A stretch of DNA of 64,000 bases from Amphiscolops sp. MND2022. Its lineage: Eukaryota. The stretch is taken from positions 49,230,001 to 49,294,000 of the forward strand of contig OZ076409.1 of assembly GCA_964187785.1 (NCBI GenBank), read 5' to 3'. The position numbers were made by a program, and so were the translations under genes. The number at the start of each line of letters is the position of its first letter. Position 1 is the first letter of the stretch. The notes beneath the pieces were generated by a model. The model searched no databases and was not told the origin of the DNA. It saw nothing but the letters and a program-made list of their open reading frames with translations. Below, one piece after another: positions 15,607 to 38,000 of this stretch.

Positions 15607-17114
15607 TGTTGCGTATCAATATATAGTACATTCCATAAAAAAACAATAAAAAGTATCGTTTCATCCAATCTTTTGCTATCTAGACACCTAGTGTTCTGAG
15701 TCATGTTTTATTCATGTAATTGTTGAATAATTCCTAAAAGTTTCGGGATTTAGATAATTCATGGTGCCCATAGTTTTTGTCTTCATCTACCTTAAGCAAT
15801 CTTGAGATATAATTTTTGCTTTGCCACTTCTACAACACACGACTACAAAATGAGGTAGAAATCGAAACTATACTTTTTTTATGGTGGCCATAAAGAGGCA
15901 ATATTCGATTCGTCTACAAAAGTTCTTTTGATCAAATTCCTCCAGGCGGCATTTTCGGAAAGCAGATGACGCATCTTCGAAAACCTTTGGAACACCAGAA
16001 ATGACACCCAAATCTCTCGAGAAAAACTTACCAGTAGCCACTTCTACAACACACGACTACACAATGAGATAGAAATCGACGCTATACTTCTTTCATGGTG
16101 GCCATAAAGAGGCAATATTCGATTGTTCTACAAAAGTTCTTTTGATCAAACTCCTCCAGGCGGCATTTTCGGAAAGCAGATGACGCATCTTCGAAAACCT
16201 TTGGAAAACCAGAAATGACACCCAAATCTTCTCTGGAGAAAAACTTGAGTTTGAACCCAAACACAAAAAATCCCCGAAAAATTGTTCGAAATTTGCTCGC
16301 AAAAGAATTCAAAGTGAAAAAGGAAGTAGTAGTTTGGCATGACATTTTGAACAACAGTATTTCCCGTCATGATAGCAACAACTTCCGTGCATCGCCGGTG
16401 ACAGAAAAGATCGAGGTATTGAAAAACCTTCTAAACACACTCAGTGCTCTGGTGTATTGCCACGGTTCTTGTTCTCCTGACATTTTTGAACAATTGAAAG
16501 GCTTAGATGCCGATCTTGACATCAAAGTGTTCAACATTGTCAGAGACTTCATTTCGCCCAAAAAACAAGAAGGATACCGAACTTTTGAAAATTTTCAAAG
16601 CACTGCACCAGAGTCCTGAGCTTGAATTAAAAAATTTGAATTTCTTGCTCCGTAAAGAGAACGATTTCACTGTCATTACTGACAAAAGCCGTCCTAAAAG
16701 GCCAAGTAGGCATAGTCGCGACGTCGTTAAGAGAGCAGCTACTATTTTAGGGTCCCCGTGAAACCCGGATTCTTGTTTGCTGTGGAGACAGTGTCCAGAC
16801 TTCACTGTCTGGTTGAAGTCTGAACAGCCCGTTGTTCTTTCAGAATGGTGTCCAGACTTAATTGTCTGGTTGATACTTTGCAAGCTTTTTCTTCTCATAC
16901 ATCCGACTGTCTCAAAAGAGTCCGAATTTCAATGAACGGTTGAAATTGAGTCAGTAATATTGCTTTAACCCTCCTCATTCACGAACATTAGGCTTTTTTC
17001 GATACTCCAGGCCCCTAATCAACTCTTTCGGAAAGTTAAAATTACATAGTTTGTTCTTTCATTCGTCCCATTCTTTGTCTCATAATCTCTTTGGACTTTT
17101 GGATTTTGTCCACA
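15607..17114 (+). repeat. Putative ~1.5 kb 5' LTR of the degenerate BEL element
   Basis: First ~240 bp homologous to 23990-24232; 3' limit inferred from ...GGATTTTGTCCACA, resembling the ...AGATTTTACA end of the young BEL LTR; internal ~215 bp duplication (15823/16037); no PBS visible. Confidence 0.5.
16215..16761 (+). pseudogene. Frameshifted ORF inside the putative BEL 5' LTR, unknown product (possibly SGNH-hydrolase-like)
   Basis: ORFs 16215-16619 and 16507-16761 join by one frameshift into a globular-looking protein (LSLNPN...VVVWHDILNNSIS...LSALVYC...ALHQ); fold assignment is a guess. Confidence 0.4.
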
Positions 17115-17219
17115 CAACACGTTTTGATTATATCCAAAGTGACCCGATCAATTCCACCGTATCTGAACTTTCAATCTAAAACATCCCGCTGATCTGATTG
17201 TCAAACCAATTCGAAAAAT

Positions 17220-20200
17220 GTGGACCCGGTTCATAATCAAGTTAAAGTGTTTAGAGAGTCGCTAAAAAACTGCAATGGATCTGAACAATTCCAGAAGGAT
17301 CTCGTAGATGCCGTTTACAATTCTGAACGTGTTTTTCGTGTTGAGCGATTGATCGAATGTTGCAACGCATCCTTGACAAAAGCTTTCACAAAGCACGAGC
17401 AACTCCTAGAGCTTGCAAAGAAGTCCACCGAGACCGCTTAAACATCGGTGGACCTCAAAAAAAGGTTGAACGACATCTTCGTGGAAAATGATCAAATCTC
17501 AAAAAAAGCAAGAGATTACTTTGACCAACGTCTACTACCGGACAACTCATCTCAGACTTCACGCCAGACAACGACGATCAAGACTGAGTCTAGCTAAGCA
17601 TCTAGCTCCAACGTGTCAAAGATATCTAGTCAACCACAACGTGATTTCAATTTTGCATAACAGCGACGTGTGGAGATCCAGAAACAAAATGAAGAAACTC
17701 TACGCCTGGGAAAGCAGAAGCAATAAATCCAACTTGAACTTCAAGAACTTAAACTGCAGAAACTGCGGAAGGAACAGGCTCTAAGAAATGAGGAATTGAA
17801 GGAAGAAAACCGTCGGAAGCTTGGCAGAACCTACTTTGGCCAAAATGGAACCTCAAGAAGACTTGTCAGACTCCAACGCCGACCTTCATGAATCTTTGTC
17901 TCGTTTGAGTGCTTCTAACAAAGACAATGAGACAGAGCGGATCCATGATTGGATCAACAACTCTTCTAGCGAAACTGAAGCTAACCTTTTACATAGCAAG
18001 GATGTTCAGCCAACCTTACCGCAAGCAGGCTCTACGGGCACGTTCCAAGAGGTAACTTCTGAAAACCATGTTCAATTGCCTCCACCTCCACATTTTGTAC
18101 CATTGAACGAAACATTGGACTTTTCCAACAGCAATCAGCAACCCTCACTCACAAGTGAGCACTCCATTACCTCTAAGACAACTGATTCACATACAAGCAA
18201 CGCGCACACTACCGAATAGTGTGCCGGCACCGGCCGTCCCAGCGACACCTGTTACTTGGAGAGGAACAGTATTCTACGTACCACATCCAGTTGTTGCCAC
18301 ACAAGCCGTTGCAGAGCTAACGACTCGACCTTCATCTTGGTTCCCAAGTGCGACCGCAGCTCCGTTCTTCCCACCTTCTCTGACCACGGTACCGCCTAAA
18401 AGTTCTGCAAGTCTGACACGGTCTGAAGTCGCGCAACTACTAGCGTTAACTAGGAAAGATCATCTGTCAGAGTGGAAACTGTCACAGTATAATGGAGACC
18501 CTGTTCAATGGCACGAGTGGTTCGAACAGTTCCAGAGCGCCAATGATCCTTAACCTCCTTTCGATGATGCCAAGGTGACGTATCTTAAAACGCTGGTTAC
18601 TGGAAAAGTCAATGTTGTCATAGGTAAGTTTGCCTACTGTGTAGCTATGTACAAAGATGCACTCAAAACTCTTCAGAGTAAATTTGGTCAACCACAGGCT
18701 GTAGTAACTGCATACTTGGACAAACTTGCTAACGTTCCACTCGTGAAGATGCGTAACAGCGAAAGCATCATTAGGAACTCTGCAACAGTGAGTTCGGTGG
18801 TTGGCGTTTATCGGTTCCTTAACCACAACCATGATTTGTCCAGTGCATCACTGCTCAGTCATGCGGTCCAGAAGTTTCCACCGAACATGTATAACAAGCG
18901 GGCCAGTAACAGCAAGCAATTGTTCTTATTGGCTACAGATAAAGAGAGAAAACGAGACAAACAAAACAGCAAGACTTAATAAGACTTGAAAAACAATAAA
19001 CACATTTACTTTCTGTTCTGAACAATATGTCCCTTAATCTCAGTTGTCAAGTGTCTTTTAATCATAACATTATTTCTGTTGAGCAGTAAGTACACTTCCT
19101 AACGCTAATTCACTTTAATTTAAACTAATAATTTTCTCCCTTCAAATTCTTCTTGTTTAACAAAAGTACAAGTATTCACGACGTCTCTTTCCTCAACCTC
19201 CCTCAAACTTCCCTCGAAATTAAACCCAAACTTAAACCCTTCGGGGCCTTGTTTCACCAAAACCTACCATCCTGTCGCCGCCCGTCTGATCCTGTCCCAG
19301 ACTTGATGTCTGTAAGAATCGCAGTTATTACTTGCCTCAGTTACTATAATAACCTTCTGAATCTTGATAAATGTAAGTCGGATCTTTCTTACTCTTTCAA
19401 TTTAAAGTATTTCCAACTGAAAATAATTTTTGCAAACAGGAACAATTTTAGCAAATAATAAACTTAGTAAATTCAGACTTTCATGACAACCGTCCACACA
19501 TCCGAAATAGTGAAAACAGCTAGCTTCTGTGCATCAATGTAGCAACAATAGTCACGGTTGGTAAAATGAAAGAAGCTTGGTCTTTGCATACGGTGAAGCG
19601 CAACCTAGTCCGACCGACACTAATTGAGTTTGATTGGTTCGAAGACAGAGCCGAAGCTCACGAAAGACCGAAAACAGCTTCAGGAAAGACCAAAGGGGAC
19701 GAGAGTACCCAATTTGGTGTAACGAAAAACACGACGACGTCCAAAGTTTCTGCAACGACCTCGATCAACCAACGAAAAACCAACTCCAACGCAAAATCCG
19801 ACAATGTGTCAACAAATTTCGTAGCCTACAAAGAGAAACTCCCTCTGTGCGGAGGAGCAAACTCTTGCTTTTCTTGTTTAAATGACGGTCATTCTTTACG
19901 ACAGAGCCCACAACCGCGAAAATGCATCAAAGAGGGACGCGGAAGCTCCCACAACAGGTTCCGTCATGGGGCCGACCGATTTTTTCCGAACAAGAACCAA
20001 GCTCTTAACAAACGAAATCTAGAGACATCATCCTGCATTGGATCAACAAAGGTTGGCATGCAGGCTGATGAAAGCCGAGCTTGCCGTCTGTTACTGTTGT
20101 TAAGGGTCTTTTGCAAAATACGGAAGTTGAGTTGGATTCCAATAACAACTCTGAGAAAGTGTTAGCTCCTTGCAATTCAACATGTAGTCATTCTTCGATT

Positions 20201-23200
20201 TCCGCAAGGTTAGCGCGCAAACTAAACGTTCGAGGGTTACCTTCAAAATGACCGTACATGGGATCAATTACCATCATGTTGTTTATGCGCAAACGTTGGA
20301 GCTCAATTTGACACCCGGTCATTGAGGTGGCTCTTGCTCCCACTTTGCCATCAAACCGTACGTTAGAGAAGACCGCAGTGGGGGAACCGACACCATCGAC
20401 GTGTACTACCTGAAAACAAGGTATCGTCATTTAGAACTCGTATCTTTGAACAGATACAGCTACGCTGACGTCGTCATGATCCTGGGTCAGGACGTGCTTC
20501 ACTTAATCCGCCCACTTGAGTAATTCGAATCCGACTGTAAGAATGCTACAGTTGCCGTCCGTCTCCAGTTGGGCTGGGTACTGAGTGGACCTCTTCCATC
20601 GACCTCTGGAATATTCTCAACGTGTTTCAAGGCTGTCGCGTCCAACAATGATGCTGATTACGAACTAGGCGACCAACTGCGCAGCTGGTATGAAATGGAA
20701 TCATACGGAGCTTTTAAACAATAGACCCCCGTTCCGCAGCCGATGCGAGAGCGGAGAAGAAGCCTGACTGAACGACATACCACGACGGGTAGCATTATCA
20801 AATGGGTATGTTATGGGCTGAGAATGAGAGTAGTTTGTCGAATAACTACGTTTCGGATTAGTCCAGTTGAAGTCGCTAGAACGCCGCCTCGAGAAAGATG
20901 TTAAGATGAAAGAGCGAAACTCCAAATCCATCCACGATGACCTCTCTAAAAGTTACATAGATCACGTCGACAAAGCTGATTGCTTCAAAGTGAGTAATAC
21001 CCGCTAGTGGTACCTTCCGCACCACCCGGTTGTTAATCCAAACAAACTGAGTAAAGTTCGAGGAGTGGTGAACGGCGCCGCCAAGTTTCCAGGCCATTCA
21101 TTGAATAACTCACCCTTGACTGGACCGGACTTGTTGCAGAGTCTCATCCTCATTTTAATTCAGTTCCAACGGTATCCGTTATCTGCCGACATTGAAGGAA
21201 TGTACCTACAAGTTGGAGTAATTCCAGAGGACAGGCCCTCACTTCGTTTCTTGCGGCGCGAAGACCCAGCATCTGATGTAGCTGTGTTGCAGTATGTCCG
21301 TCATATCTTTGGATTTATAGACTCCCACTGTTGTGCGAACTTTGCTCTGAGGAGAACAGCAACGCACAACCAATCAACGTTCTCTGAAGCCGTTCAAAGT
21401 GTTTCCAGTAATTTTTACGTGGATGACTACCCACAGTCAGGCCCGACGGTTGAAGTAGCAACACGCAAAGCCGAGGATCTAGTGAAACTGCTTTCTTTGG
21501 GAGACTTCAAGTTAACAATGTTCGTTCCAAACGTATCCTCGATCCCAGCGCAAATGGAAACTAATCGAACTCCAGAGCCCAAAGTGGAAGAAATCCCGAG
21601 TGGTGAAGAATCGTCGCATGTGCTTGAGTTGAACTGGAACCACACTACCGATAACCTTGTAGTCAGCCGCGGTACAAACTCTCAGATCAAAGCGACGATT
21701 ACACTAAGGGTATTTTTGAGCCTGGTCTCTTCTGTGTACAATCCAATTTGGCTAGTTGCATCGTATATTATCGAAGGACGCCTGCTGCTCAAAGATATCT
21801 GGAGGCTAAGCGGGCAGCATTGGGCCTGACGCTCAACATAACCAGGACTTTTATGTGCACCGATAGCACTACTGTTCCACAATGGATTCACTCAATCGAG
21901 AAGCAACCGGTCTTCATAGCTAACCGTGTGGCGTTGATATTGGATCTAACTACGACGGATAAGTCGAATTATGCTTATTCGAGCATGAACCCAGCCGATA
22001 CAGGAACTGAAAGTCTGTCAGGATCCGCTCTAGCAGACAGCAATTGGATGAAAGGACCCGATTTCTTGAGAACATCTAAATGGTCCTATGAACAATCCGA
22101 AGTTGAAGAAACCAAACCATGAGTCCAATCTGTTACCAGTACTGGAGATGTCAACTACCATGGTGTCCGCAACTCAGTCTACAATTGCACAAACATTCGA
22201 GTGGCGAAAGTATTACCCATATGAGAAAAACTGCCGTCCTGTTGCTACATGTTACGACTGTCGTACAAGAACAGTCTCTACAGGAGTCCTATTGGTGCAA
22301 TCACAGACCCGGTGGAACTGGAACATGTCCAACAACGACTGCTTTATATAGCCCTATCCGAATCGTTCCCTTCCGAGAAAAATAATCTTTTGAAATCTTC
22401 GCCACTCAGTACAACTTCCCAAAAGCTCAATTTCCCCCTTTATTGAACCGAATGGTTTGATAAGAACTTCTGGACGTTGCCAATTTAACGTTGCCACGTT
22501 TGATGTTAAACATCTCGTTCTGCTAGATGGTCGTCATCTCATGGTGTAACACTCGTCCACAAGAAACATTGCCACCAGTGTCGACTACCTACGAGCTTTA
22601 GTGCAGCAAAGCTTTTTTGCTGTAGTCAAACTGAAAACCACCCTGAGAGCAATTGTTTTGCGCCGCGTAACATGTCGAAATCGAAGAGCCGAAATTTTAA
22701 ATCCAATAATGTCAGGTTTGCCGCAAGAAAGACTCGCTTTCAAAGAACCTCCGTTCTCCAACATGGGTATGGATTATGTTTGACCATTCTTTGTATCTTT
22801 TGAAAGATTTACTGACAAACCATGGGGTTTCCTTTTTACCTGTTTCATGACTCGGGCCGTCCACTCTGAAGTGGTCCCCAGCATGAACATAAGTAGCTGC
22901 GTGATGGGCTGCGTGATACCCATTCGTAATTTGATCTGACAATGGCACAAACTTTGTAGCCAGCGAAAAAAAGCTCATGTACAACATCAACAATCGGATC
23001 CAACAAATCCTCAACGACGCACTGTTGAAAAAATAAAGAACTAAGGGGAAGTTCAACCCCATCATGGAGGTGTTTGGGAGCGCGTAGTCCAAAGTTTCAG
23101 ACACGACTTCTACGCAGTCTTGGGAATTGGTCGCCCGACCAATGAAAGTTTGTCGACAACATTTTGCCTCGTGGAACAATGCATAAATGTTCGACCGTTA

Positions 23201-23615
23201 ACACCCGCGAATACTGACGCCACGGACCTAGACGCGCTTACACCGAACCATTTCGTGTTGGGAACTGCCAGTTCTCCGTTACCGACTACATTTCAGGCCG
23301 AAGTAGACCACTGGAAGCGGTACATTCGAGCGCAAGCGTATTCAGACGTAGTTTGGAATCGGTGTCTCAAGGAGTACGTTCCAACACTCAATCGCCGCTC
23401 GAAACGGTCGCATCCATCTGACTTAGAACTCGAAGCCGGAGATCTAGTTTGGATAGTAGAACCTACTGCTCCAAGAGGACACTATCCACTTGCCAGTGTT
23501 GTCAAGTTAAACTAAGGCACCGATGCCGTGGCTTGGTCAGAGGATGTTAAGACCTCTTCCAGCAATCTGGTCCGTCCACTTGTCAAGCTCTCTCCCGTTC
23601 TTCCTGTTCCTGAAT
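17220..23615 (+). pseudogene. BEL/Pao gag-pol pseudogene (many stops, frameshifts and deletions)
   Basis: See element entry; includes the gag core motif (WKLSQYNGDPVQWHEWFEQF, KVTYLKTLVTGK) and the integrase C-terminal block. Confidence 0.85.
18888..19562. mobile_element. ~675 bp insertion (solo-LTR-like) interrupting BEL gag
   Basis: gag reads QKFPPNM|KEAWS across the insertion (compare QKLPPNMREAWS in the young BEL); flanks AACA/AAAA resemble a 4-bp TSD; starts TGTATAAC. Confidence 0.75.
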
Positions 23616-23691
23616 AAAATAGTTTACAGTTCTCTAATCATTTTGCTTTGAAAACATGTATCTCAAAAACATATAACATTGTTTACACGTG

Positions 23692-23915
23692 TGAGATGCA
23701 GACGCCAGACTGCCAATCTCCAATTGAAGAACTGTCTTAGTTTGAGAGTTGTCTAGTACTTAGTTACAAAAAAGCTCTGAAAGCCTTACTTAGCTGTGAC
23801 TTATTTATGTTAATGTGTTGTTGTAACTCAATATATTCGAGAATCACATATACTATTGTTGAATTGAAGATCCGTATGTTACATCGTTTTACCTTTAGGT
23901 TCAACTATTTTAACA
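23692..23915 (+). mobile_element. Solo LTR (224 bp) in the BEL 3' UTR
   Basis: TG...CA termini with perfect 5-bp TSD ACGTG (23687-23691 / 23916-23920); strand tentative. Confidence 0.8.
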
Positions 23916-23989
23916 ACGTGTTTCCCGAAAGTGGCAAAGAATGAATTTCTATTTGGGTTTTTTCTTCACATCCCTCCGATCCCGGAGGA

Positions 23990-24232
23990 TGATGCGTATC
24001 ATTATATAATACATATCAGAAAGTACAATGAAAAATATCGTTTCATTTGATCTTTTGCTATCTCGAATCTTAATGTTCTGAGTCATGTTTTGTTCTTGTA
24101 ATTTTTACCTAACTCCCAAAAAATGCTGGATTCAGTTGATTCATGGCGCCCGTATTTTGTTAGTTCATCTACTCTAAACAATCTTGAGAAACAGCTTTTG
24201 CTTTGCCACTTCTACAACGAACGACTACAAAA
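23990..24232 (+). repeat. Truncated 3' LTR of the degenerate BEL element
   Basis: Follows PPT-like CCCGGAGGA; homologous to 15607-15850. Confidence 0.75.
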
Positions 24233-24239
24233 CGAGTAA

Positions 24240-25210
24240 AATTGACACTATATTTCTTTTAAACGTTTATCAGCTTCGAACCCTTGATCTCTCGGAATTT
24301 GTATAGAAATTGCAATAAAACGACGAAAATTTAAAACTTTGGAGTTTGCTACATCTTTTGGGTCACTTTGCGGTATTTTTCTATAGCACACTGTACTTAT
24401 GTTTCGGGAAAGGCCTACTGGAACAGCGAATTCTTCCATTTTTAAACAATTTCCCATTCTAGTCCTCGAAGTCTTTCGAAAATTTGACAAAAAAGTATAA
24501 GAATGGTGAAAATCTGAAAATGTTGGTAATTCTGTCTTTTTCTGTGTCATTTCGAGACTTTATTTATTTAAAAAAACACCCATTGTCACTTCACTAAGCC
24601 TAGTGGACAACAAACTCTTTCCTTGTTGACTCTTTTCAACATTCCAATTTACAAAAGCTGATGAAATTTCACAAACATTGCATGAAAACAATAAAAATCG
24701 GGAAATTTTGGATTTTTCACATTTTTAGGGTCATTTTCTTTTCGGAAAACCGCATTCATTTTTTTATAAGAGACTACTGGACAAACATTTGTTGCCTTGT
24801 TGAACGTTTTCAACATTCTAATCCTCGAAGTCAATCGAAACTTTGACAAAATTAGCATAAAACGATAAAAATTGGGAAATTTTGGACTTTTTGTGAATTT
24901 TTGGGTCATTTTCTTCATTCCCAAAAAAGTCCCAATTTCTCTACAAATACATATCGCCCGAAGCTAAAGTTATGTGAATTGAATTCTGTGGGTGACACCC
25001 TTCAATTCGAATATAAATTTGGAACATGGCAAATTTAGTGAAAAAAACGGTTTGATTTAAACATTTTCCTTTTCCATATGGAATATGGTGGACGGAAAAT
25101 AATAATCACAGTCCAGATGTGTGAAAATTTCTTACTTCGAACCAAAAAAATTATTCTGATAAAAGATTTCATCTTTAGATAGGCCAGTTGAGAAATTTTT
25201 TGAAAGTTCA
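24240..25210 (-). repeat. Composite interspersed repeat, right (inverted) copy, part 2 (~180 bp units plus unique block)
   Basis: tgga(a/c)a units at 24420, 24603 and 24777; 25040-25115 is the reverse complement of ~6780-6845. Confidence 0.7.
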
Positions 25211-32000: not shown

Positions 32001-35000
32001 CTCAAGGATGGCTGCAATGTTGCATGCAAACAATGCAGAAGTCTGCAATGTTGTTGTGCCGGGCTGACGAAAATGGAAGGTAAGTCCAAAAGAGCTTCGT
32101 TGATGTAATTTCTAGAACAGATTCTAGAACTCTAACTGTTGCGATAGCAATACAAATATCGTTAATTTAAAACAAACAAATTATAAGGCAGCTTGGCTCA
32201 GCGGTAGAGTACAAGGCCGGTATTTGACCGGCGTGGGTTCGATTCCCGGACATGGAAAATATTTTTATATTTTGGAAATGTTTCTCTGATTTCGGTAAAA
32301 ATACTCTCGAAAAGGCCTTGCTATTCAGATCAAAAAGTGAGTCATATTCTTTTGTAATTTTGTGATCAAACTTTGAGTTGGCGGTAATTATTCTCTTGTT
32401 TGGTTTTCTCATTGAAAAAGTTGAATAGACGTTTGTGATAGCGAGAATGTGATAGCATTTTCTGCAACAATTTCCGCTATGGTTGGCGTGTTCCGTTCGC
32501 TGAAATACGAACACGATTTGTCAAGTGCAGCCTTATTGGGTCAAGCCGTGCAGAAACTACCCCCAAACATGAGAGAAGCTTGGTCTATGCACACTGTCAA
32601 GAAAGATTGGAGCCGACCAACCCTCTTGGATTTTAACGAATGGTTGAAAGATAAAGCCGAAGCACATGAGAGGATGAAAATCTCAACCACAAAGCCCAAG
32701 AGCGATGAAAGTGCGCAATCAGTTACTCGAACAAAGACTGGTACGAAAGTTTTTGCCGCAACAAGTTCTAGCGCATCTTCAAAAGAATCCAGAACTAAGC
32801 CAAATCAAGTGCAACTAAACTGTAACGTGTGCAAGGATAACCATCCACTGTGGCGCTGTCGCGTGTTCCTTGATAAAACGCCGACCGACAGAGCAAAGAT
32901 TGTTGCCGAAAACAAACTTTGTTTCTCCTGCCTGAAAGGAAACCATTCTTTCCGACAATGTCCGCAACCACGAAAGTGCAACAAAGATGGATGTAACAGC
33001 TCTCATAACACCCTGCTACATGGCGCAGAGAGAGTTTTCCAACCAAAAACGACACCGAAATCGTCCAGTAACCAAGCAACTGGATCGCGTAACCTCAAAA
33101 CAACTGTGAATAAAGCTGGAGAGAGCTCCGGAGTTTGTTCCGTGACCGATGTGAAAGGACTGCTCCAAATTACTGAAGTTGAAGTTCACACTTCGACTAC
33201 TTCCGCCAAGGTATTGGCACTGTGTGACTCAGCCTGCAGTCACTCTTGGATCTCCGAAGATCTCGCAACCAAGTTGAACGTAAAGGGCTTACCGACCAAA
33301 CTAACTGTTCATGGCATCAATTCTCAACAAGTTGTTGACACTCAAATAGTTGAGCTTAAGTTGACACCTGTTCATTCGGGTGGCTCTTGCTCTACTTTCG
33401 ATGTCAAACCTTACGTCAGAAAAAACTTGCATGTTGGAAACGATGTCATTGATGTTGACCAATTGAAGCAACAGTACCCTCATTTGGAGCCCGTCGCTCT
33501 AAGCAAGTACACTTATGGAGACGTCGAAATGATACTGGGTCAAGACGTGTTCCACTCAATCCGCCCGTTGGAGTATTTTGAATCCGACCGAAAAAATACC
33601 CCAATTGCCGTCCGATTACCGTTGGGTTGGGTTTTGAGTGGACCATTACCTTCGACTACAGGACTCGTCTCGACTTGCTTCAAAGCTGTCACGCAAAGCG
33701 AGGCTGACTCCAAGTTGGCCGATCAACTTCGGAGTTGGTTAGAAATGGAGTCGTTTGCTGCAATGAAACAAATAGACCCGCGCTCTGCTGACGATGCTAG
33801 AGCGTCGAAGATTTTGCAAGAAACAACATATCATGACGGATGCCGATATCAGGTCGGTATGTTGTGGGCTGATGACGAGAGTAGTCTCCCGAACAACTAT
33901 TTTTCAGCCTTAGTGCAATTGAAATCCCTTGAACGCCGACTCGAAAAAACTCCTGAACTGAAAGCGAGTTACGCTCAGACCATTAAGGACGACTTCGACA
34001 AGGGATACATCGTTCAAGTCGACAAGTCAGACTGTTTCAGAATTGACAATCCGCGTGAGTGGTATCTACCGCACCACCCAGTGTTCCACCCTCACAAGCC
34101 AGGAAAAGTACGCCGTGTACTCAATGGTGCAGCGAAATTTCATGGTGTTTCACTGAACAGCAAACTTTTAACTGGTCCTGACTTGTTGCAAACGTTAATC
34201 CATGTGCTCATGCGATTCCGACAACATCCCTATGCTGTATCCGCTGACATCGAGGGAATGTTTTTACAAGTTGGTGTGATCCCTGAAGACCGACCGTCTC
34301 TTCGTTTTCTGTGGCGGGAGGACCCAGCAACAGACGTCGCTGTGTACCAATACGTACGTCACATCTTCGGTTCGAAGGATTCGCCAACGTGTGCCAACTA
34401 CGCTTTGCAACAGACTGCTCGTGACAACCGAATCCAATTTCTTGAAGCCGCCAACAGTGTCGAAAACAATTTTTACATGGACGATTATCTTGAATCAAGC
34501 CCCACCGTCAACGAAGCCACCAAGAAGGCTCAAGATCTTGTTGAAATGTTGGCCAAAGGTGGTTTCAACCTAAGGTGGTTCAAAGGTGGTTTGTCAGTAA
34601 TGTTCCAGGTTTGGTGAAAATTGTCGACCCGAAATATCAACTGCCTGCCGAATCGAACGAGAAAGTCTTAGTAACAAATGAAGAGACCTCGCATGTTTTG
34701 GGTTTGAAATGGAACCATAGTCGTGACACCTTGGTTGTCAGCAGAGGAACTACACCTGACTTGAATCGACCAGTAACACAGCGTGTTGTCCTTAGTTTAG
34801 TGTCCGCGGTGTATGATCCCATTGGTCTTGCGGCACCATATACTGTAACAGCCCGCCTTTTGTTGAAAGACATTTGGCGCCTGAGTGGGCAACAATGGGA
34901 CAACAATCTGCCTGACAACGTTAGCAAAAAGTTTCTTGAATGGGCTGCAGAGCTCCCCAATTTGAGCGAAATAACCATTCCGAGATGTTATTTTCGTGGA

Positions 35001-38000
35001 ACCATGAGAAGTGTTGAGTTACACGTTTTCGGCGACAGCTCTCAAGATGTCTTTGCCGCTGTTGCTTTCCTCCGTGCGCGAGTGAGCCGCAACGAGAGGA
35101 CTGAAACCCAGTTAGCCTTTGTCTTTGGGAAAGCTCGTGTTGCCCCGATGAAAGCGCTCACAATAACGAAATTGGAACTCCAAGCCGCACTCTTAGCAGC
35201 CCGACTGAAGGATGAAGTTCAACAAGCACTCACGGTACCTGTTGAGCGAACGTTCATGTGGACCGATAGTACAACTGTGCTCCAATGGCTCCATTCCATT
35301 GACAAAAAACCCGTATTTGTCGCCAACAGAGTTGCCGAAGTTCTTGAGTTGACGACAGTTGACGAATGGAACCACGTGCCAACAGCCGACAACCCGGCAG
35401 ACGCGGGCACGCGCGGTCTGCCGGCAAAAGCCCTTTTCGACAGTTCTTGGCTCAAAGGTCCCAAGTTCTTGATGACTCCTGATTGGCCTTTTCAGCCGTC
35501 GGAAGAGATCTTGAAAACTAAATTGAAAAACTATGATTCCAATGAAATCAACGCCGACTCAGTCTACCAAGAGACAACAGCAAATACCGCAAGTGTAACT
35601 CCTAATGTCCTAACTCTCGAATGGCAAAGGTACAGCTCGTACGAGAAACTTTTGCGCATTGTTGCATTCATTTTGCGTATTTTGCCGAGATTCTCTGGTA
35701 ACAGAACTAAAACAGGAGCAATTACTGATCCTGTCGAGCTTGAAAGTGCTGAACAAAAATTGTTCTTCTTGGTACAGTCCGAAACGTTCCCGAACGAAAC
35801 AAAAAATCTGCTGAAGACTTGTTCATTGAGCAAGCCTTCAGTTATAAAAGATTTCTCCCCCTTTATCGGTCCAAACGGCCTTCTCCGTGCTCAAGGTCGA
35901 ACAAAACATCTGGAAATTGCCAACTTTGACGTCAAACACCCTATTTTACTCGATAGCCGGCACCCCGCAGTTCGTTTATTTTTAGAACATCTTCATGAGA
36001 AACACTGCCATCAAGGCGTCGAGTACTTGAGAGCCTTGATACAACAGAAGTTTGCCATTGTCAAACTGCGAACGACCTTAAGAACGATCCAAACCAGATG
36101 CGTAACATGTCGCAAACGTAAAGCGGAAACGCTGACCCCGATTATGGCAGATCTGCCAAAAGAACGCTTGGCCTTTTCATCGCGACCTTTTACAAATACT
36201 GGCTTGGACTACTTTGGCCCCTTCTACGTCTCCGTTAAACGCTCCACAGAGAAGCGGTGGGGATTTCTCTTCACATGTCTTACAACTCGCGCTGTCCATT
36301 TCGAAGTTGTGCCATCAATGGACACCAGCAGTTGCGTCATGGGAATTGAGAGATTTGTTTCACGTAGGGGCATCCCTTCTGTTATCTTGTCAGACAATGG
36401 GACTAATTTCGTTGCGTCAGAGAAAGAACTCCTCCAGAACGTTCTCAAGTGGAATCAACAGTCAATTGCTGAGTCTATGGTAAAGAAAGGTGTCAGGTGG
36501 AAGTTTAATCCTCATAGTGCTCCACACCATGGCGGTGTCTGGGAAAGGCTAGTGAGAAGTTTTAAGCATACTTTCTATGCGATACTCGGCAACCGACGCT
36601 TGACTGACGAAATTCTAACAACGGTGTTTTGTCTTGTGGAGCAGAGCCTCAACGCTCGTCCGCTGATTCCAGCAAGCGCAGATGCAACTGACTTGGATGC
36701 TTTGACACCTAACCACTTCTTGCTTGGAACAGCTGGATCGTCTCTACCGTCCCATTCTAACTGTGATTTCGACCACCGCAAGCGATATGCACGCGCCCAA
36801 GCTTATTCTGACGCTATCTGGAACAGGTGGCTTAAAGAGTACGTGCCGACTTTGAATCGTCGCTCAAAGTGGTGCACACAGTCCAACAGGCAATTGAAAA
36901 CCGGAGATCTCGTTTGGATTGTAGAACCCACTAACCCGAGAGGCTACTACCCTCTCGCACGTGTCATCAAACTCCATTTTGGCAGCGATGCTGTCGCTCG
37001 CTCTGCCGAAGTTAAAACCACGTCTGGAAACCTTGTCCGTCCGGTCGTGAAACTAGCCCCAGTCCTTCCTTCCCCTGATTTAATTGATTTATCATAATCC
37101 ATTTTAATTGTACTTAACTTTTGAACCACATGTATCTTCAAAATATGTATCATGAATTTTCATTCCAAACTGATTATGGAAAACATGAAAATAAAATCGA
37201 GAAAAAAGTTTGTTTTTGACATTTTAACATTTTTCATCTTCTTGGGCCCGGAGGATGTTGCGATAGCAATACAAATATCGTTAATTTAAAACAAACAAAT
37301 TATAAGGCAGCTTGGCTCAGCGGTAGAGTACAAGGCCGGTATTTGACCGGCGTGGGTTCGATTCCCGGACATGGAAAATATTTTTATATTTTGGAAATGT
37401 TTCTCTGATTTCGGTAAAAATACTCTCGAAAAGGCCTTGCTATTCAGATCAAAAAGTGAGTCATATTCTTTTGTAATTTTGTGATCAAACTTTGAGTTGG
37501 CGGTAATTATTCTCTTGTTTGGTTTTCTCATTGAAAAAGTTGAATAGACGTTTCTTCTCATCCAAATCTTTGGCATCAATCAAAAGATTTTACACTAACA
37601 GTCAGGAATTTGTTAAACCGTGAATGAATAAAGCAACGTTTTTGAAGGAAAACTGTGAAATTTATCACTATTGAGTATTATCACGCCAATACAGAACCGC
37701 ACTACAAAAATTAGCAGAAACGAATAAAAATTTACGCTGTGGGTGGCATTTGAGGGCCCTACCATTTGAGGCACTTTCAAAATTTTCCCAAAATGACTAA
37801 AGCTACGAATTTTGTATTTTTTTGTCGTTCAATACTGTCGAAAAGCTTCTATAGATATATAGTTTGAGCATAAAGTTCGAACAAGGCAAAATTTGGAAGG
37901 AAACGCGGCTTAGAGGTTAACTTTCACATAAAATATGATCGGAAAATAACAAAGTGTCGCTACATGAAGTACACAATTCCCATTGTTTTTTCATCGCAGT

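Follow-up and report, generated by a model that had tools for sequence, protein, structure and literature searches.

A putative tRNA-derived Pol III promoter module in the LTRs of a BEL/Pao lineage, with promoter signals kept in related subfamilies

Introduction

Salmon swim bladder sarcoma virus, a coding vertebrate retrovirus, carries an intact tRNA-Met gene in the U3 of each of its long terminal repeats (LTRs). LTR promoters for RNA polymerase III (Pol III) are also described in miniature elements, whose genomic RNA is believed to start from them. Helenus elements (TRIMp3) are non-coding, measure 311-1263 bp and are thought to produce their genomic RNA from such a promoter, while their autonomous partners are expected to use Pol II and to lack long LTR stretches in common with TRIMp3 (PMC10886601). 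That study reports no acoel, with 0 matches for four acoel terms in its supplement (PMC10886601). In foamy viruses, Pol III cassettes in the LTR make short RNAs that are separate from the Pol II genome (PMC3993851).

A stretch of 64,000 nucleotides from Amphiscolops sp. (hereafter the window) was analyzed, in which a sequence-only reading had noticed a tRNA-like Pol III unit in both LTRs of a BEL/Pao element. The one precedent that it cited was Cassandra; tRNA-like LTRs are already known under the name Helenus (PMC10886601), and small-RNA genes of the Pol III type are known from the LTR U3 of coding foamy viruses (PMC3993851).

The host element

The BEL/Pao copy spans 5458 bp (32137-37594) and is flanked by the 5-bp duplication CTAAC. 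The features to which the text refers are listed here, all on the forward strand.

15607..24261, +: older, decayed sister BEL/Pao element, used for comparison; LTRs without B box; primer site TGGTGGCCAT near 15882
32132..32136, +: target-site duplication CTAAC on the left, repeated at 37595-37599
32137..32434, +: truncated 5' LTR with the initial 298 nt out of 339, from its identity to the 3' LTR and from the reading frame that aligns to P0144 from residue 590
32181..32186, +: TTATAA, 5' of the module; not common to relatives (triplet 32181-32183 differs in 14/14)
32187..32266, +: 5' copy of the tRNA-derived module (LTR positions 51-113) with the T run
32194..32204, +: Pol III type-2 A box, by motif
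32216..32232, +: central hairpin of 6 bp, about 4 nt off the expected place of the anticodon arm; loop variable in relatives (fold, relatives)
32236..32246, +: B box of Pol III type, beginning 42 nt after the A-box start, by motif
32262..32266, +: T5 run that may terminate Pol III (T-run count); region one base shorter in relatives (frame difference)
32318..32361, +: motif block TTGCTAT, TGAGTCAT, TTGTAATT; common to the module-free sister family, seen by eye
32425..34617, +: rest of gag, protease region and reverse transcriptase (RT); stop-to-stop frame of 730 aa with RVT_1, 96.6% to P0144
34545..37097, +: second frame of 850 aa with Pao Peptidase_A17, integrase and DUF5641; frame break relative to the first, 98.0% to P0144
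37244..37255, +: purine-rich tract adjoining the 3' LTR, by sequence inspection
37256..37594, +: 3' LTR, complete, 339 nt, TG...CA, by LTR comparison
37306..37385, +: 3' copy of the tRNA-derived module, with no difference from the 5' one, by LTR comparison
37595..37599, +: right target-site duplication CTAAC, matching the left copy

A domain search detected the pol domains in the order RVT_1, Peptidase_A17 (E 1e-41), Integrase_H2C2, rve and DUF5641 (E 6e-23). The Pao-type Peptidase_A17 and DUF5641, together with the succession of RT, RNase H region and integrase, identify the element as BEL/Pao, and its ends show the expected TG...CA LTRs, short target duplication and purine tract, with the 5' LTR truncated. 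The closest named proteins (P0096, P0103 and P0112) are BEL/Pao proteins of the acoel Convolutriloba macropyga and share 43-57% identity with the pol frame. Searches for loci encoding the pol protein found none in viral contigs and none in prokaryote genomes; elsewhere, a single distant contig of 2.9 kb matched at 36%.

The copy is young but defective. The 298 nt of its 5' LTR are identical to the matching part of the 3' LTR. The 5' LTR stops at nt 298 of 339 and is fused straight into mid-gag, so that the LTR end, the primer-binding site and approximately 590 codons are gone, and the first open reading frame accordingly aligns to the relative P0144 from residue 590. The reading frame is in addition disrupted in the RT around 34545-34617. 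The earlier description of a coding BEL/Pao element was correct as to identity, given the pol domains, but this copy does not retain an intact gag-pol. The family has an intact member in P0144, known from its protein of 2138 aa; the window frames are 96.6-98.0% identical to it.

The LTR module

A tRNA-derived module occupies LTR positions 51-113 in both LTRs and is followed by a T run. The downstream copy is identical at an offset of 5119 nt (37300-37385 with TTATAA included). All of the parts that had been listed for it (TTATAA, A box, D-stem, 6-bp hairpin, B box, T5 run and a missing acceptor stem) were located in both LTRs where the sequence-only reading had placed them. Their presence in both LTRs had also been taken as a sign of passage through reverse transcription; the copies are indeed identical, but this is weak evidence, since a single round of replication places whatever U3 contains in both LTRs.

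The A and B boxes conform to the Pol III consensus and lie 42 nt apart from start to start, and the G+C content is 0.61 across 32187-32250 versus 0.35 for the LTR. A strict pattern of A box plus B box occurs twice in the window, at the two module copies, versus 0 occurrences in 300 sequences simulated with an order-2 Markov model of the window, which excludes a chance motif match. The assignment of tRNA-derived Pol III boxes is supported. The predicted fold consists of three short hairpins without an acceptor stem, its stability does not exceed that of shuffled sequences (z -0.44), and D-stem-like pairing is present in the window copy. A candidate Pol III transcript of about 76-80 nt is predicted from the T run. 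Inspection of the sequence revealed no evident target duplication or tail around the module itself.

The proposed check with tRNA finders and covariance models came back negative, with ARAGORN detecting no tRNA in the module and Rfam giving no match at the gathering score, and nothing scored beyond a 13-nt T-loop segment of tmRNA (E 0.88). These results and the missing acceptor stem exclude a genuine gene for a tRNA or tmRNA. From TCAG to CCCGG the module measures 52 nt, as do 37 of the 39 natural loci retrieved by a pattern in which 47-57 nt were permitted; the tRNAs called at the pattern matches are nearly all Gly or His, and the highest identity of the module to the comparison tRNAs is 52/72 bases. 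Judged by its sequence, the box spacing is of the tRNA-Gly/His type; as the comparison loci are viral and the pattern was derived from the module, this assignment describes geometry and not the parent isotype. The module also has the A and B boxes that mark a tRNA-derived SINE head. Free copies of such a head were absent from the window and none lay clearly outside an LTR among 19 peptides (a weak test, with P0203 the least certain), and the exact 27-base module pattern had 0 matches in metagenome contigs.

The motif block at 32318..32361 may represent the Pol II core of the LTR, although a MAFFT alignment did not bring it into register with the sister family. The LTRs of this older family (15607..24261) lack the module. 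As the sister family transposed without it, the module is not essential.

Related subfamilies

Relatives were traced as spurious antisense gene calls, which are translated antisense frames of LTRs; silent positions are therefore invisible, and frameshifts inflate the divergence of the flanks. P0192, a 917-aa tandem array of other source with only B-box-derived words in common, was excluded ahead of the count of 18 LTR-derived peptides. Every peptide anchored on the downstream LTR (14/14) continues into module sequence. This rules out a one-off insertion in the window copy and supports a family-wide presence of the module, which is not missing from most of the LTRs seen in this way. Both boxes are compatible with 13 of the 18 peptides at a distance of 41-43 nt, and four (P0191, P0193, P0198 and P0202) have a damaged or deleted box.

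The D-stem and TTATAA, which had been regarded as parts of the unit, do not appear to be conserved, since each is found in 0/14 relatives; together with the fifth T they are peculiar to the window copy. As the D-stem is broken in 14/14, RNA shape is not what is kept. The central stem is broken by four single-copy changes, with no compensatory change seen among these relatives. The 3' arm of the central hairpin is invariant in 14/14, with five changes in its loop.

A distant pair of relatives retains more of the module than of the downstream LTR: 14/18 versus 6/18 residues in P0201 (Fisher p 0.009) and 15/18 versus 8/34 in P0203 (Fisher p 4e-5), a difference that is partly built in because the profile used to find them included the module. 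Their common module changes fall at a free B-box position and in the hairpin loop, and both retain the two boxes at the exact 42-nt spacing, although neither the sequence nor the length of their flanks is the same. The interior between the boxes is different in P0194, which nevertheless fits both of them at a distance of 43 nt (shuffle null 1.2-2.7%, 118-273/10000). Between the two close subfamilies, conservation of the 66 nt located 3' of the module almost equals that of the module itself (19/22 residues in P0188 and P0195); in P0196, the module keeps 17/18 residues and the downstream part 24/34 (p 0.044). Two LTR peptides come from contigs equal in length to those of pol proteins (P0196 with P0024, P0190 with P0123), a coincidence that does not link them given how common BEL copies are.

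Transcription limits and primer site

Between the module and the next LTR there are 39 runs of T4 or longer, eight of them T5, and the first lies 12 nt past the module core. With 39 such runs Pol III cannot make the genomic RNA. A Cassandra-like genomic promoter is thereby ruled out, and the earlier proposal of a promoter, taken as one for the element's genomic RNA, is not supported. For the relatives P0185 and P0190, a primer site compatible with the sister-family site TGGTGGCCAT was deduced from three codons, with a pattern that also matches two unrelated window sites. The 3' end of the module does not complement TGGTGGCCAT, and a self-encoded primer was rejected by inference, as the module does not match the deduced site.

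Discussion

The explanation that we favor, with the chances evenly balanced, is that one BEL/Pao lineage captured a tRNA-type Pol III promoter in its U3 and kept it as a DNA element with a likely role in chromatin. A tRNA-derived type-2 promoter of Gly/His-type geometry would have entered the putative U3, its probable source being a SINE head or a tRNA retrocopy, and several subfamilies would then have inherited it. The kept feature would be a DNA signal, namely the A box and the B box set 42 nt apart, to which TFIIIC and TFIIIB most likely bind. Pol III would make a short RNA terminated by the T run, and the occupied site would keep chromatin open or insulated directly 5' of the Pol II promoter for the genomic RNA. 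As a genomic-RNA role is ruled out, the boxes, if under selection, would have another function, which most likely concerns chromatin. Under such selection, one host containing a BEL family that has the module and a sister family that lacks it would provide a natural comparison of whether TFIIIC sites aid retrotransposons against silencing.

Clearly less probable, though a serious contender, is a neutral passenger, with a SINE head or a piece of a tRNA having inserted into the U3 of a founder and been copied along, its apparent conservation being due to young subfamilies and a harmless sequence. The module would then be an ordinary captured SINE head. The module-free sister family, the box lesions in 4/18 peptides and the similar conservation of the downstream 66 nt in close subfamilies agree with this, as does the statement that 'not a few' Repbase LTRs contain part of a tRNA (PMC10886601). 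It is harder to reconcile with P0201 and P0203, which hold both boxes and their spacing despite differing flanks, with the box-compatible ends around a different interior in P0194, with the missing tail and target duplication around the module, and, as a weak test, with the lack of clearly free head copies among the 19 peptides. That the product matters, as a small-RNA gene whose 76-80-nt RNA serves as decoy, silencing modulator or primer, is improbable. A terminator at tRNA distance 3' of the B box and the invariant hairpin arm with its variable loop would fit such a gene, for which foamy viruses with Pol III RNAs in the LTR U3 are a precedent (PMC3993851), but the unremarkable fold, the broken D-stem, the uncompensated changes in the central stem and the lack of a long hairpin of the pre-miRNA type argue against it, and a primer function conflicts with the non-complementary 3' end.

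Just as little probability is given to an origin of the lineage's U3 from a Helenus-type miniature by recombination, with the boxes serving the miniature partner. The boxes fit the Helenus description, P0194 resembles a subfamily LTR in which the 5' part has been exchanged, and the elements behind the distant LTR peptides are known from these peptides and not from coding sequence. Nevertheless, animal Helenus elements have Gypsy-type primer sites and target duplications of another length, the terminator directly 3' of the B box would halt a Helenus-like genomic transcript, and no miniature partner was found in the window. A more far-reaching form of the favored explanation, rather doubtful although less so than these last two, is that an autonomous BEL/Pao lineage domesticated the promoter to serve its LTR as a chromatin element under selection, retained it while the subfamilies diverged and even exchanged the interior with the boxes in place. 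Internal deletion of such coding elements, already begun in the window copy, would then be a direct route to Helenus-type miniatures, in place of SINE insertion into an existing miniature. If true, this would be another origin for Helenus-type elements.

Compared with known systems, the degenerate module of this BEL/Pao lineage differs from the intact tRNA gene of Salmon swim bladder sarcoma virus. The foamy virus cassettes are alike in that their A box, B box and terminator lie in the U3 of a coding retroelement, but they are tested miRNA precursors with long stems, whereas the BEL module is tRNA-derived and known from sequence alone (PMC3993851); a long stable stem-loop ending at the terminator is absent from it, with three short stems in its place. 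Cassandra and Ajax are 5S-derived, non-autonomous TRIMs (PMC10886601), in contrast to a tRNA-type module in a BEL element, and the LTR-to-LTR transcript of Cassandra is excluded here by the T runs. Helenus and the BEL element share a tRNA-derived segment in both LTRs that retains the A and B boxes, has lost most of its tRNA function and does not serve as primer, and the motifs of the Helenus/TRIMp3 segment (TRGCY, YGG and GGTTC) are present in the module. Helenus is short and non-coding with presumed LTR-to-LTR Pol III transcription and, in animals, a 4-bp target duplication, whereas the BEL element has a BEL/Pao polyprotein, a terminator after the B box and a 5-bp duplication. A design described so far mainly for tiny non-coding elements is thus carried here by a coding BEL/Pao element, and its related subfamilies, judged from their peptides, keep the promoter signals and spacing and not the tRNA shape.
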